Positions 5,014-8,366 of a stretch of 64,000 bases of DNA are shown here, piece by piece; the first letter of the stretch is position 1, and each line of letters begins with the position of its first letter. The stretch covers positions 5,444,165-5,508,164 of the forward strand of contig OY762209.1 of the NCBI GenBank assembly GCA_963665295.1. Reading direction: 5' to 3'. A program made the translations under genes and the position numbers. The DNA comes from Syntrophorhabdaceae bacterium. Its GTDB lineage: Bacteria; Desulfobacterota; Syntrophorhabdia; Syntrophorhabdales; Syntrophorhabdaceae. The notes beneath the pieces were generated by a model. The model was not told the DNA's origin and ran no database searches. It saw only the letters and a list, made by a program, of their open reading frames with translations.

Positions 5014-5145
5014 AACGAAATATCAAAATATCGCCCACGGGCCGTACAACAGGCTCCGTGAGGGTAAACATACGGGTCAAGCCTGTATCGTGCGATGTGG
5101 GGGAGTTTCAACGGGGTTTCAACGGTACTACAGGGGAGAGGGCAA

Positions 5146-6648
5146 ATGGCAGATAAGCTAAAACCGGTCCTTGACGAGATCGCCACTGTGGAAAAGGATA
5201 TCTACCAGGACTACATTGGGAAGGTCCAGACCAACCCGGATAAGATATTGCGTTCCGAAGGACGCGGCAAGGGTATCGAGCTTTATGAGGATTTGCTCCG
5301 CGATGACCAAGTGGGATCGAACCTTAACACACGGAAACTCGCCGTAGTTGGCAAAGAATGGGAAGTCGTTCCCGCCTCCGAGAAAAGAGCGGATCAGAAG
5401 ATCGCCGATTTCGTCAAGGAAGTGCTCCTTGCGTGCAACTATGACGATGCGAGAAAGGCGCTCCTTTCCGGAATCGTCCTCGGCTTCAAACCCGCCGAGG
5501 TCATGTGGGAGTATTCCGAAGGGCAGGTATGGATAAAAGAAATCATCGGCAAGGCTTCCCGGAGGTTTGTATTCGACCTCACCCGTAGTCTTCGTCTCCT
5601 CACCCTTCAGAACATGATCGAAGGGGAGGAAGTCCCGGAATGTAAGTTCCTATGCTACACAAACGTATCTGACAACGGGAGCCCCTACGGGGACGCGCTT
5701 GGAAGGCTCCTCTACTGGCCCGTGTGGTTCAAGAAGAACGCGATCAAGTTCTGGATGGTCTTTGCCGACAAGTTCGGGAGTCCTACTGCAATAGGGAAGT
5801 ATCCCCCCGGCACGCCCCAGGCCCAACAGGACGCCCTTCTATCGGCGATCGACGCCATACAGCAGGAAGCGGCCATCAAGATACCCGATAACGTGGACAT
5901 ATCCCTCCTGGAGGCAACGCGGGGAGGATCGATAAGCTGCTATGACGGCCTCTGCGCGTTCATGAACGCGTCCATTTCCAAGGTCCTCCTTGGGCAAACC
6001 TTGACCACGGAGATAGGCGGTACAGGCAGCTATGCGGCGAGCCAGACCCATGAAACAGTCCGGGAGGACTATATCAAGGCGGACGCGGACTCCCTGTCGG
6101 CCGCGCTCAACCGCCAACTGGTGCGCTGGATCGTGGACTATAATTTCCCCGGCGTGACCCGGTACCCAAAGGTCTGGATCAGGACCGAGGGAGAGAAGGA
6201 CCTCAAGCCACTCGCGGACCGTGACAAGCTTATCATCGTAGACATGGGCGTGCCCGTAACCGCCGATTACATCTATAACACCTATGGGATTCCGAAGCCC
6301 GAGGACGGTGAGAAGCTTATAAATGCTCCTGCAAAGGAGCCTGTAAGCCCACAACCGGATCAGCCAAACCCACAAAATGATAAGTCCGCAAATTTTGGAG
6401 AGCAGACCTCCGGGATCGCCGCGCTTATCGAGGCGCAACGGAACATAGACGCTCTCACGGGTAATGCCGTGAAACAGGGTGAAATTGATCTCTCGGACCT
6501 GGAGAGAATTGTCGAGTCGGCGACGTCTTATGAGGATTTGCAGTCAAGGCTTGCAGAGGCGTACCGGTCTATCGGTCTGGCGGAATTTCAACAGACCCTT
6601 GAACGGGCGCTGTTCATGGCGGGCCTGAAAGGCAGGGCTCTCCCATGA
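5146..6648 (+). CDS. portal protein (Mu gp29 / DUF935)
   Basis: FADKFGSP..IGKYP and SKVLLGQTLTT..GSYAASQTH motifs. Confidence 0.93.
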   Translation: MADKLKPVLDEIATVEKDIYQDYIGKVQTNPDKILRSEGRGKGIELYEDLLRDDQVGSNLNTRKLAVVGKEWEVVPASEKRADQKIADFVKEVLLACNYDDARKALLSGIVLGFKPAEVMWEYSEGQVWIKEIIGKASRRFVFDLTRSLRLLTLQNMIEGEEVPECKFLCYTNVSDNGSPYGDALGRLLYWPVWFKKNAIKFWMVFADKFGSPTAIGKYPPGTPQAQQDALLSAIDAIQQEAAIKIPDNVDISLLEATRGGSISCYDGLCAFMNASISKVLLGQTLTTEIGGTGSYAASQTHETVREDYIKADADSLSAALNRQLVRWIVDYNFPGVTRYPKVWIRTEGEKDLKPLADRDKLIIVDMGVPVTADYIYNTYGIPKPEDGEKLINAPAKEPVSPQPDQPNPQNDKSANFGEQTSGIAALIEAQRNIDALTGNAVKQGEIDLSDLERIVESATSYEDLQSRLAEAYRSIGLAEFQQTLERALFMAGLKGRALP

Positions 6649-7790
6649 TCGAGTTCACCCCTCTTCCGTTTGATGAAGCAATCCGGTTTTTCGGGGATAA
6701 GGTAACCCTCGCTCCGGACAAATACAGAGCCCTCACCGCAGAGGCCAGGGCGAAGGCGTTCACGGTGGCGGGCGTGGCGAAGATGGACGTGTTGACGGAC
6801 CTCTACACGGGGATCGACAAGGCTATTTCGGAGGGGACCACTTTCGCGGATTTTCAAAAGTCGGTGACGGGCATAATGGAGAAGCGGGGATGGACGGGGA
6901 TGACGCCGTATCGTCTGGATAATGTCTTTCGCACCAACATACAACAGGCGTATCAGGCCGGGCACTTTCAGAAACAGATGGGGCTCGCCGACCGCCGTCC
7001 GTATTGGCAGTACGTGGCGGTGATGGATTCCCGCACCCGGCCCGCCCATGCGCGGATGAACGGTAAAGTGATGCGGTATGACGATCCATTCTGGGAAACG
7101 TCCTATCCGCCGAATGGTTTTAGATGTCGCTGCGCGGTGCGGGACTTGTCGGAGAGCGAGTTCGGGAGAGAAAAGTTGAACCTCACCGAAAATCAGGACT
7201 CCGTTGCCGACCCGGGGTTCGATACAAATCCGGGAGAAGCATACCGAGTGGACCTCGTCGCATGGGAAAAAGCGGAGAAAGCCCCTCGTCCGTTACAGGA
7301 AGCCTTCATGGACGCCATGGCAAAAGGGTCTCCCCGCAGGGCTGCCTTTGCAGATTGGGTTGACGAGATTGCCAAAGACAGAAAGGCGCGAGGAAAGACG
7401 AGTGTAATTGGATGGATGGACTCAGACACAATGAATTACCTGACTCGGAATGACGTGCACCTGTCATCACCGGTAATTACCGCTAATGACAAGAGAATAC
7501 TCCATACGATGCGAGAGGCAAAGGAGGCGAGAGGTAGCACTCTCTCCATCGAGGAGACAAAGGGCATCCCCGATGTTATCGCCGGATATGACGCGGTGCT
7601 GTGGGACACCGAAGACCCCGCCCTCGTGTATGTGTCGGCAGGGCGGGAACGCGACATCAAGATTGTCGTCAGAGTAAATTACAGGCTGAAAGGAGAACGG
7701 GAACCTGTCAATCTCCTTACGACCGCGGGGAAGGTTCAGAGAAAAAACCTCACAACGAAAAGATACCAGCTTATAAGAGGAGAATTATGA
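6645..7790 (+). CDS. MuF (gpF) minor head protein with a C-terminal extension resembling PBECR-type nuclease domains
   Basis: Y.AVMDSRTRPAH and YPPNGFRCRC MuF motifs end near GFDTNPG; about 170 extra C-terminal residues (ILHTMREAK...LWDTED.ALVYV...IVVRVNY...LLTTAGKV). Confidence 0.85.
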   Translation: MIEFTPLPFDEAIRFFGDKVTLAPDKYRALTAEARAKAFTVAGVAKMDVLTDLYTGIDKAISEGTTFADFQKSVTGIMEKRGWTGMTPYRLDNVFRTNIQQAYQAGHFQKQMGLADRRPYWQYVAVMDSRTRPAHARMNGKVMRYDDPFWETSYPPNGFRCRCAVRDLSESEFGREKLNLTENQDSVADPGFDTNPGEAYRVDLVAWEKAEKAPRPLQEAFMDAMAKGSPRRAAFADWVDEIAKDRKARGKTSVIGWMDSDTMNYLTRNDVHLSSPVITANDKRILHTMREAKEARGSTLSIEETKGIPDVIAGYDAVLWDTEDPALVYVSAGRERDIKIVVRVNYRLKGEREPVNLLTTAGKVQRKNLTTKRYQLIRGEL

Positions 7791-7897
7791 TGGGGCTGGA
7801 GGGGCGCCACATCCCTCATAGGGCGGTCAGCCTCGACGAAATCAAGGCCTCATGTCCAACTGGCCACGGCGACTTTCCAGTTGTCAGCCCCATCATT
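7787..7897 (-). ncRNA. putative antisense cloverleaf RNA (~110 nt)
   Basis: Perfect 12-bp closing stem 7787-7798/7885-7896 enclosing three hairpins; one C-A mismatch on the + strand is a G-U pair on the - strand; has its own promoter. Confidence 0.7.
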
Positions 7898-7903
7898 AGT
7901 CAA

Positions 7904-7931
7904 ATTATAACACAGCAAAAGGACGTGTCAA
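7904..7931 (-). promoter_or_regulatory. consensus sigma70 promoter, antisense to the late operon
   Basis: Minus strand reads TTGACA-16 nt-TATAAT with a TGn extended -10. Confidence 0.8.
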
Positions 7932-8366
7932 GTGGCCGATAGCTGGATAAGAGTTGAGATCAAAGACGAGGGGCTAAAAGACCTTCTCAAAAGCCTAAAG
8001 GAAAGAGTCGAGAACCCAGCCGAGGCGATGAAAGAAGTGGGTGCGATCGTCAGAAGCTCCATAATCAAGAATTTCCAGGAAAGCGGTCGCCCGGAGAAGT
8101 GGAAGCCGAAGAGAAAGCCCCGGCAAGGCAAAGTTCTCATCGACACCGCCCGGCTTCAGAACTCCATAAATTACAAAGCCTACGCGAACAGGGTGGAAAT
8201 AGGTCCGGATGCAGTAGTCTATGCCGCCATTCATCAGTTCGGAGGCAAAGCAGGCAGAGGCCATAAAGTCACGATTCCCGCCCGACCTTATCTCGCGGTT
8301 CAGGATGAGGATTGGTCGGAGATCAAGAGGGTAATCGAGAACTATCTCACGAGGAGGAACGCATAA
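7932..8366 (+). CDS. phage virion morphogenesis protein (Mu gpG-like)
   Basis: LIDTARLQNSI, YAAIHQFGG and IPARPYL motifs. Confidence 0.9.
   Translation: MADSWIRVEIKDEGLKDLLKSLKERVENPAEAMKEVGAIVRSSIIKNFQESGRPEKWKPKRKPRQGKVLIDTARLQNSINYKAYANRVEIGPDAVVYAAIHQFGGKAGRGHKVTIPARPYLAVQDEDWSEIKRVIENYLTRRNA

Follow-up and report, generated by a model that had tools for sequence, protein, structure and literature searches.

An opposite-strand, tRNA-like RNA behind the PBECR-type nuclease domain of MuF in Mu-like prophages: a candidate RNA immunity factor

Background

MuF proteins of temperate phages can form toxin-immunity pairs. As described for MuF-C, Ct_MAD and PBECR (PMC5576092, PMC5512222; here and below, papers cited by identifier are represented by excerpts), the protein combines a MuF N-terminus with a C-terminal BECR domain bearing a His and a Thr, the gene lies in the head module of a temperate phage, and a partner gene follows directly downstream; a small putative immunity ORF follows most MuF toxins (PMC5576092). 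PBECR domains carry the His in the first helix and a Ser/Thr in the last strand, and MuF-C, classed as PBECR, is described as inactive in Mu and predicted to be active in orthologues (Iyer et al., PMC5512222). The same authors argue that PBECR domains may avoid host tRNA and suggest RNA binding for inactive MuF-C (PMC5512222), and the toxicity of Ct_MAD was left open by Jamet et al. (PMC5576092). A 2026 survey of BECR domains covers MuF-fused members and reports protein immunity for DUF6883 (10.64898/2026.08.28.747851).

The locus analysed here, in a 64,000-nt stretch of a Syntrophorhabdaceae genome (the window), resembles these pairs in domain make-up, head-module location and a directly following partner gene, with one difference: the partner is a small protein there and an opposite-strand structured RNA here (PMC5576092, PMC5512222). 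The excerpts of these two papers make no mention of an RNA partner of MuF-C/PBECR, and the terms "noncoding", "non-coding" and "type III" do not occur in the excerpted text of the 2026 survey (10.64898/2026.08.28.747851).

Type III toxin-antitoxin systems (ToxIN, CptIN, TenpIN; PMC5086642) likewise join an endoribonuclease to a non-coding RNA in which a loop pairs with a distant strand, the RNA being sometimes present in tandem copies. Their described layout is one promoter, RNA repeats upstream, a terminator and then the toxin (PMC5086642), whereas in the present system the RNA lies downstream, on the opposite strand, with its own promoter for each copy and usually as a single copy; its fold is tRNA-like and multi-helix, and the putative toxin is a BECR domain fused to a virion protein. 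By analogy, the RNA would work like a type III antitoxin, but the window locus departs from that family both in layout (RNA upstream, one transcript, terminator between) and in tandem short repeats: the window has a single copy, and the arrays found elsewhere consist of whole promoter-RNA units.

The YrlA Y RNAs (PMC4201824) likewise mimic tRNA, having D arms, T arms and an acceptor helix of increased length; they are partners of a protein and occur in phages too. D and T arms of this kind are present in some homologues of our RNA (L010, L029, L042 and L058), whereas the window RNA, like most members, replaces the D/T-loop contact by Watson-Crick kissing loops. Furthermore, the window RNA has no Rfam Y RNA match, its partner is a nuclease domain, and no Ro60 gene lies beside it, the neighbours being portal, muF, gpG and protease. 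On the protein side, the closest solved folds are the colicin D and CdiA-CT tRNases, which share the layout of a His in a helix plus a Thr (PMC5512222). They differ in having about 10% identity, protein immunity, and secretion instead of virion delivery. Short cloverleaf antisense phage RNAs made in the lysogen are known from P1 (C4) and P4 (CI). The present RNA is similarly a short, tRNA-shaped phage RNA, but it has no Rfam match, its conserved loops pair together and not with an mRNA target, and it is tied to a nuclease gene and not to the immunity region.

The literature searched, mostly as titles and the beginnings of abstracts, yielded no description of an RNA located downstream of PBECR or MuF genes. 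Catalogues of candidate structured RNAs that accompany large comparative screens could already list the motif, unnamed and without a function. As far as searched, the RNA half and the pairing of RNA with nuclease are new.

Results and discussion

The locus and the nuclease-like tail of MuF

The window locus belongs to a Mu-like prophage, whose head module it forms, with the gene order portal, muF, gpG, protease according to Pfam and PHROG; a Mu-type transposase, an AAA ATPase, a repressor-like HTH protein and Gam of the same prophage lie upstream of the window. The protein-coding features are the following:

5095 to 6648, plus strand: Mu-type portal gene (Pfam Portal_Mu, E 2e-111)
6645 to 7790, plus strand: muF, 381 aa (Pfam Phage_Mu_F, E 2e-25, residues 57-165; PHROG 220, minor head/DNA pilot)
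7269 to 7790, plus strand: C-terminal MuF-C/PBECR3-like BECR-fold domain of muF (from homology and predicted structure)
7932 to 8366, plus strand: gpG-like virion morphogenesis gene (Pfam Phage_tail_S, E 9e-24)

As in the MuF toxin-immunity layout, muF follows the portal gene and carries a C-terminal toxin-like domain. No small immunity ORF of at least 50 aa lies wholly inside the 141-nt gap between muF and gpG, which is occupied by the RNA and its promoter. A 113-aa plus-strand ORF (7601-7942) overlaps both muF and gpG and lacks a Pfam match. A small protein in the gap was rejected as a candidate, as this ORF and the short annotated ORFs of phages B3 and CAM-P21 match no family and have no sequence in common.

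The last 173 residues of MuF give a weak match to Pfam PBECR3 (E 0.013; 15.9 bits against a cut-off of 30), and one homologue (L167) passes Pfam MuF_C at 30.6. The tail is homologous to the C-termini of Mu gp30 (tblastn E 4e-7), B3 gp33, RS138, CAM-P21 and others among 57 phage records, and it matches 372 representative proteins at E <=0.001. A scan of viral contigs with the tail as a single protein found nothing, and a sequence search of solved structures returned one chance row. His287 (codon 7503-7505), Lys293 and Thr360 are conserved, the His and Lys at >=90% in 43 homologues.

The AF2 model of the tail (pLDDT 91) contains a predicted BECR core, composed of helix H74-81 and strands E109-113, E118-123, E129-138 and E147-156, with the His within the N-terminal helix and the Thr in the last core strand (H79 and T152 in tail numbering, both conserved in alignments A1 and A4). 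In a VIA structure ranking over 48,161 chains, the best matches were BrnT (Z 5.3), the colicin D tRNase (Z 5.0, rmsd 2.9 over 81 aa), CdiA-CT NC101 (Z 4.8) and RelE (Z 4.6); the top rows were mostly BECR toxins at middling scores (Z 4-5.3), and the solved neighbours are 5znm (Z 5.0), 1tfk (Z 4.4) and 5i4q (Z 4.8). Foldseek against the PDB gave no match at E <=0.001. No ToxN, CptN or TenpN family or structure is among the Pfam or VIA matches listed for the tail, which are BECR.

The model thus agrees with an earlier sequence-only reading of the window, which had expected a BECR-like fold in the tail. That reading had treated the tail as an exotic extension, and here it did not hold: the tail is the MuF-C domain, which phage Mu gp30 itself carries and which in all likelihood corresponds to the Ct_MAD domain described by Jamet et al., and the protein half is already known.

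The RNA gene and its promoter

The gap and its borders contain the following features, all on the minus strand:

7787 to 7896, minus strand: RNA gene, 110 nt, four helices (fold z -3.5; covariation in 42 distinct sequences)
7896-7885 with 7798-7787, minus strand: closing helix P1, 12 bp, perfect; its 3' arm overlaps the muF stop codon
7857 to 7883, minus strand: hairpin P2, 7 bp, in the D-arm position (both-side changes at 7 of 7 pairs)
7829 to 7849, minus strand: hairpin P3, 7-9 bp, in the anticodon-arm position (fold and homologue comparison)
7799 to 7817, minus strand: hairpin P4, 5 bp, stacked on P1 and placed like a T-arm (fold and covariation)
7904 to 7931, minus strand: sigma-70 consensus promoter TTGACA-16-TATAAT with an extended TG -10 (12 of 12 hexamer bases)

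The P2 loop, AAAGUCGCCGUGG, contains the kissing strand CGCCGU (7871-7866), which is complementary to GUGGCG (7810-7805) in the P4 loop; P3 can be extended to 9 bp by two further G-U pairs. The minus strand folds at -50.8 kcal/mol, a value equalled by none of 200 shuffles, and the plus-strand fold is less well defined (z -2.8, with disagreement between MFE and centroid). The promoter, with TTGACA at 7931-7926, a 16-nt spacer and TATAAT at 7909-7904, overlies the gpG ribosome-binding site. Perfect sites of this kind are expected 0.007 times per 64 kb and observed once; the 5.5-Mb genome contains 21, two of which front the RNA and its second copy. A chance fold or a chance promoter was ruled out by the shuffles, the expected site count and the covariation described below. 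The promoter, the closing stem with its three hairpins, the complementarity of the first and third loops and the lack of an immunity ORF had all been claimed in the sequence-only reading, and each was confirmed as proposed. No U-tract terminator was found at the 3' end of the RNA in the window sequence. If the RNA ends at P1, it overlaps the muF coding sequence by only 4 nt.

The search of Rfam suggested by that reading gave no family match. With Rfam 15, including its ribozyme, C4 and RAGATH models to the extent that it has them, the window has no match at the gathering threshold (three chance-level matches, E 3.5-9), six homologous phage loci have none, and 20 further loci yielded one unrelated sRNA-Xcc1 far from the RNA. 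ARAGORN called no tRNA in the window and none of these RNAs in 39 loci, where it reported one unrelated tRNA-Phe. By both programs, the window RNA lacks a canonical tRNA cloverleaf with an anticodon arm and a CCA-ready acceptor, and a known RNA family or tRNA was ruled out as an identity.

The RNA as a conserved family

Homologous loci were collected via the domain from viral, genome and metagenome contigs, from phage and plasmid records, and from three taxonomic draws of about 400 genomes each; a scan of Mu-like sequences gave 17 near-copies, which were treated as one cluster. A covariance model built from 15 sequences (R1) gave 46 matches in 86 sources and 20 more in 17 of 28 further sources, nearly all of them on the opposite strand directly behind the stop codon of the domain. 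Its errors were one wrong-strand match (L085) and one weak off-locus match (L024:80-180), together with six weak off-target matches in 29 control loci. R1 recognises the kissing class only: it missed most RNAs of the T class and all of the PBECR2 type described below, and found nothing in the whole genome G403, although G403 holds arrays. A blank from R1 was therefore not used alone as absence. In four sequencing runs, made up of contigs, only the other RNA copies of this genome were matched.

In an alignment of 42 distinct sequences, which was fitted to the structure and includes three rows later dropped (wrong-strand, off-locus and truncated), both-side changes occur at 27 of 32 helix pairs, and 89% of the paired cells can pair, compared to 64.5% in shuffles and 37-45% in slid controls. 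RNAalifold on an unfitted alignment recovers P1, P2 and P4, with compensatory changes in 13 of 18 pairs. P3 is the most variable part, free in sequence and length among the homologues, and the RNA has a few invariant bases alongside its pseudoknot-like loop pairing. At paired columns, G-U cells outnumber A-C cells by 75 to 16 in the minus-strand reading; this bias, together with T-loops on the minus strand, rules out an element of the plus-strand mRNA. A -10 hexamer matching at least 5 of 6 bases lies on the RNA strand, 60-170 nt behind the stop codon, in 33 of 57 RNA-bearing clusters, against 9/57 on the other strand, 4/57 in coding DNA and 0/8 in RNA-less clusters. At the level of sequence comparison, the RNA is a conserved, opposite-strand, self-promoted gene with tRNA-like topology that travels with His-bearing PBECR domains.

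Kissing loops, T arms and the two-hairpin form

For 26 distinct loop pairs, the score of P2 with its cognate P4 loop is 12.9, compared to 11.5 +/- 0.26 after permutation of the partners (p ~5e-5, a value inflated by kinship among the sequences) and 10.1 after shuffling of the letters. All six variants whose loops deviate from GGCG show better pairing with the cognate loop; in L008, for example, the loops are CGCUCAG/UUGAGCG, compared to CGCCGUG/UGUGGCG in the window. Column counts on automatic alignments gave both-side changes at only 0/4 and 1/6 kissing pairs, because the variant loops were out of register, and the loop test was therefore redone without columns. The loops of the L020 group, read by eye, are CGUGA/UCACG.

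In 15 of 67 clusters, about a quarter of the RNAs, a tRNA-like T arm replaces the kissing loops, an assignment based on single folds and the T-loop motif since the T-class alignments are too poor for pair counts. Several of these RNAs have a canonical GGUUCGAAUCC T-arm, some of them with a D loop; their closing helices are 8-13 bp long, their middle arms are free, and they are not called as tRNA. Members of the T class are scattered among the remaining RNAs across the domain tree, which forces at least four changes. Behind PBECR2 tails there is a third form, composed of two hairpins with complementary loops: among nine sequences the cognate loops score 16.8 against 12.3, and 59 of 362,880 permutations score as high, with two of the nine sequences scoring low. 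The true T-arm and two-hairpin architectures occupy the same slot without shared sequence. Covarying loops alone fit pairing within one molecule and between molecules equally and cannot tell the two apart; the members with true D/T loops point to an intramolecular elbow.

Linkage of the RNA with the domain

The domains of 117 loci were clustered at 80% identity into 70 clusters, of which three were dropped as frameshifted or as another family (L050, L160 and L165). The presence of the RNA was scored by R1, by the T-loop motif or by reading of predicted folds. At divergent loci the calls rest partly on such readings, and since single sequences fold there with modest scores (20 folds, z +1.0 to -4.2), they lean on position, promoter and loop pairing. 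Of the 67 scored clusters, 59 have the RNA: 56 with both His and RNA, 4 with His only, 3 with RNA only and 4 with neither. The association yields a Fisher p of 0.003, which is overstated because kin are not independent. In the taxonomic draws, the RNA was present in 16 of 19 scorable loci (L011, L165 and L173 were not scorable).

The RNA has been lost in at least six separate events on the domain tree. In Mu, JBD24, JBD18/JBD67 and L164/L166 both the His and the RNA are absent, and muF overlaps gpG; Mu, JBD24, JBD18 and JBD67 are viable phage records. Within Beetrevirus, B3 has the His and the RNA, and JBD18 and JBD67 have neither. The clusters with a His and no RNA are the Thalassospira L021 group, Ralstonia RS138/L154, YO088 and L009. 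In the L021 group the His, Lys and Thr are intact and the domain is followed by an ORF of 100-124 aa with only a weak DUF1488 lead (0.84); its sister, the L020 group, has the RNA. RS138/L154 shows a Lys to Gln change and YO088 a Thr to Ala change, and in these and L009 the His is kept but not the Lys or the Thr. The three His-less clusters that keep the RNA are L146 and L158 (with Arg) and L161.

Control loci were picked by the MuF domain alone, 21 of them viral and 29 from this phylum. Among the viral controls, 13 PBECR-type tails have a gap with a promoter and a foldable RNA, four short MuF genes overlap the next gene and have no RNA, three HExxH peptidase tails have no RNA, and one proved not to be a genuine MuF. 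At two of the HExxH peptidase loci (L068 and L070), the same slot is filled by an opposite-strand ORF of 73-100 aa. In the phylum controls, the RNA lies behind six of six PBECR-type tails and behind none of nine other toxin-like tails or 13 short MuF genes, with one split gene (L122) left aside. Two expectations of the sequence-only reading were thereby upheld: the RNA is conserved behind homologous domains, with covarying helices, and it is missing behind the short MuF genes of both control sets. The RNA-nuclease pairing is real, widespread and apparently undescribed.

Orphan copies and arrays

The same genome has a second copy of the RNA in a type I-E CRISPR array of 26 repeats, where 494 nt of phage DNA separate the final two repeats (C1, about 2446076-2446569); the other 24 spacers are 32-33 nt long. 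The insert comprises the last part of a related muF, the RNA with its promoter, and the beginning of gpG. Its muF part is frameshifted, with two one-base gaps and a stop (198/248 identical to the window). The RNA is 81/85 identical outside P3 and 16/25 within P3, where pairing is kept; the promoter region is 29/35 identical with both hexamers intact, and the gpG part 76/106. Most of muF is missing from a third prophage remnant, which keeps a 54-residue PBECR2-like stub, recognised by comparison with L066 and not by profile, together with a two-hairpin RNA and a TTGACA-16-TATACT promoter. The RNA therefore survives twice in this genome without an intact nuclease.

In L044 there are nine RNA copies, seven of them in tandem about 168 nt apart and each with a -10 box, among stand-alone domains; the domains of this genome, which has the largest array (L044 and L046), lack the Lys. 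L024, L168 and L174 encode long proteins that lack a MuF match and terminate in the domain; three, two and two RNAs, respectively, come after them. The L024 gene is toxin-like, and its three RNAs differ in their loops, each being self-complementary. L170 contains an RNA, an orphan C-terminal cassette and a second RNA. Arrays of toxin-immunity cassettes are known from polymorphic toxins. By analogy, the RNA arrays have the same layout, with the RNA in the apparent place of the immunity gene.

Alternative explanations

The strict pairing of RNA and domain would also be expected if the RNA were a positive partner of MuF, i.e., a cofactor, activator or scaffold that forms an RNP with it and is perhaps packaged in the manner of a prohead RNA. 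The phi29 pRNA, in which loops pair between molecules, offers a comparison, and the loop covariation is compatible with such pairing, as are the three His-less domains that keep the RNA and the RNA binding suggested for inactive MuF-C (Iyer et al., PMC5512222). Nevertheless, Mu, JBD24, JBD18 and JBD67 and the short-MuF phages do without the RNA, orphan copies are kept without a usable protein, and the true D/T loops point to an elbow within one molecule; we consider a positive partner unlikely. A cis-antisense silencer of type I-like action would shut down leaky late transcription in the lysogen, either by transcribing convergently or by pairing across the 3' end of muF and the ribosome-binding site of gpG. 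It accounts for the convergent layout, the strong promoter and the fact that the stop codon and the region of the gpG start are overlapped; since no terminator was found, the primary transcript may run antisense into muF, as this explanation would have it. Such a silencer needs no conserved tertiary fold, yet covariation is seen in the helices and between the loops, tRNA D/T loops are retained in some members, and tandem, separately promoted copies and the CRISPR-array orphans have no cis target, so that this role is quite unlikely.

The tRNA-like shape, the host-type promoter, which would be useful straight after infection, and the capture of the RNA gene by the host are equally in keeping with an anti-defence decoy that soaks up host anticodon nucleases or tRNA-sensing defences, its link to PBECR being only one of position in an accessory slot. 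This is improbable, as the RNA occupies the slot after PBECR-type tails only and not after short MuF genes or other toxins, the arm in the anticodon position is the least conserved part, and the RNA accompanies the domain into non-MuF genes. Small ribozymes are reported to be enriched near Mu-like phage genes (PMC10085705), and a pseudoknot-like loop pairing together with a few invariant bases would suit a self-cleaving ribozyme or other processing element; with no Rfam ribozyme match in the window or 26 homologous loci, and with two other architectures filling the slot without shared sequence, we regard this as highly improbable. The roles could finally be reversed, the RNA being a toxic tRNA mimic that jams translation and the nuclease its antidote, and the joint loss of the two fits this too; but copies with perfect promoters persist without an adjacent intact nuclease, and arrays reach nine copies, which makes the reversal hardly credible.

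A proposed function

From the gene anatomy, strand, secondary structure, loop covariation, domain linkage, joint loss and orphan retention, all evident in the sequences, we infer expression, RNase activity, binding and a direction of effect as follows. The RNA is probably (a probability of roughly 0.6) the immunity factor, or antitoxin, of a virion-borne, tRNase-like PBECR domain fused to MuF. The domain would be a tRNase resembling colicin D that is produced late and enters the virion together with MuF. The RNA would be transcribed from its host-type promoter independently of the late operon; as this promoter faces away from that operon, expression is possible in the lysogen and at once after DNA entry. 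The RNA may bind the domain unproductively, mimicking a tRNA but having too long an acceptor helix and lacking both a CCA end and a fixed anticodon, a shape that suits a decoy for a tRNase, or may alternatively serve as a sacrificial substrate. Holders of the RNA gene would be protected from their own toxin and that of incoming kin.

An antitoxin would explain why the RNA goes with the nuclease instead of with MuF, why it is shed upon active-site decay, kept after loss of the nuclease and multiplied with different sequences, and, through protection against kin toxins, why hosts keep orphan copies. The sequence-only reading had proposed a tRNA mimic acting as antitoxin, decoy or cofactor; among these, the orphan copies, the arrays and the joint loss with the His favour the antitoxin. 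Several observations count against it: the fold scores are middling (Z 5.0-5.3) and the PBECR3 match is below the cut-off; four His-bearing clusters lack the RNA and three His-less ones have it; the domains of the genome with the L044/L046 array lack the Lys; and avoidance of host tRNA has been argued by Iyer et al. (PMC5512222).

We propose more tentatively, and with more doubt than confidence, a class of polymorphic toxins in which a tRNA-mimic RNA and not a protein serves as the immunity factor. A phage-injected PBECR tRNase would be neutralised only if the RNA gene is transcribed, and because neutralisation would need transcription of the phage RNA gene, a host that destroys the incoming DNA would be poisoned. 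Lysogens, and hosts that collect RNA genes in tandem arrays or CRISPR-array inserts, would be immune to kin toxins. The elbow of the RNA would have been built in several ways, from captured tRNA D/T loops, as four-helix kissing loops, and as a two-hairpin kissing RNA for PBECR2.

Conclusions

The RNA provides a concrete partner for the MuF-C/Ct_MAD/PBECR domains, whose toxicity had been left open and which until now lacked an immunity gene. The Pseudomonas phage B3, with the His and the RNA, and JBD18/JBD67, with neither, constitute a natural pair for laboratory work. If the antitoxin reading is true, RNA antitoxins would gain a new nuclease fold and a new gene layout and would reach effectors delivered by virions, and an RNA would fill the immunity slot of polymorphic toxins. 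Whatever the mechanism, these bacterial tRNA mimics form an uncatalogued family, in which a natural series leads from true D/T loops to kissing loops.

RNAs and reading frames behind other MuF tails

A separate class of RNA is found behind the PBECR2 tails (loci L066, L067, L073-L076, L113, L115, L117 and L118). It consists of two hairpins and the closing helix is absent; the loops are complementary over 6-8 bp, their sequence being free. Another subfamily of PBECR3-like tails (L111, L112, L082, L085 and L165) likewise has a promoter on the opposite strand together with an RNA that folds; the covariance model of the kissing class does not recognise this RNA. An Rfam match at locus L042 and, in the bacterium's own genome (chromosome G000:C1), a third Mu-like prophage remnant lie at the following positions:

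L042:4034-4121, Rfam sRNA-Xcc1 match (54.2 bits)
L087:4394-4700 (G000:C1 about 1748400-1748700), third Mu-like prophage remnant

The sRNA-Xcc1 match follows a T-class RNA downstream at a distance of about 1.5 kb, inside a Mu-like head module. Within the remnant, a portal gene fused to a PBECR2-like stub is followed by a two-hairpin RNA with its promoter and then by a gpG fragment, which carries a 200-nt deletion.

In Thalassospira loci (L021:2516-2857 and its relatives L022, L023, L030 and L036), a long hairpin and an ORF of 100-124 aa stand in place of the RNA. The ORF, for which DUF1488 is a weak lead, is a candidate protein immunity. The MuF proteins of L068 and L070 bear HExxH peptidase tails and are followed by ORFs of 73-100 aa on the minus strand, opposite to muF; these occupy the slot that elsewhere holds the RNA and are candidates for immunity proteins, and a Pfam search with the L068 ORF gave no match. 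MuF proteins with phospholipase-A2-like tails (L131 and L134) are followed by small ORFs resembling membrane proteins.

Other features of the own genome

Further features were located in the prophage lysis region of the window and in a type I-E CRISPR array:

window:1603-2109, permuted papain-like gene (Peptidase_C92), prophage lysis region
L088:5077-5570 (G000:C1 about 2446076-2446569), 494-nt phage fragment flanked exactly by two CRISPR repeats
L088:4588-4620 and L088:5016-5047, self-matching spacers of the same array

The Peptidase_C92 gene adjoins a Glyco_hydro_108 lysin. The phage fragment occupies the trailer end of the array, and may have arisen by a long acquisition or by recombination between spacers and phage. 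Matches to the two spacers occur elsewhere in the own chromosome, at a distance of about 40-70 kb, one at 33/33 nt (C1:2487342-2487374) and one at 30/32 nt (C1:2512974-2513005); judging from these matches, self- or prophage-targeting is possible.

Possibly altered or fused, and stand-alone, nuclease-like domains

In phage RS138 (L001:2700-2975), the frame of the annotated muF shifts directly past the His motif, and in a close relative (L154) the gene is in frame; a sequencing error or inactivation is possible in RS138. Protein P0151 (525 aa) combines segments resembling MFS transporters with a MuF-C-like domain, and may represent either a fusion or an assembly artefact. Genome G403 (L044, L046, L148 and L150) contains 11 matches to the nuclease-like domain, mostly stand-alone genes of 160-180 aa without MuF, together with many RNA copies arranged in tandem. 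These sets of domain and RNA look like a unit that has dispersed and is either selfish or collects immunity.
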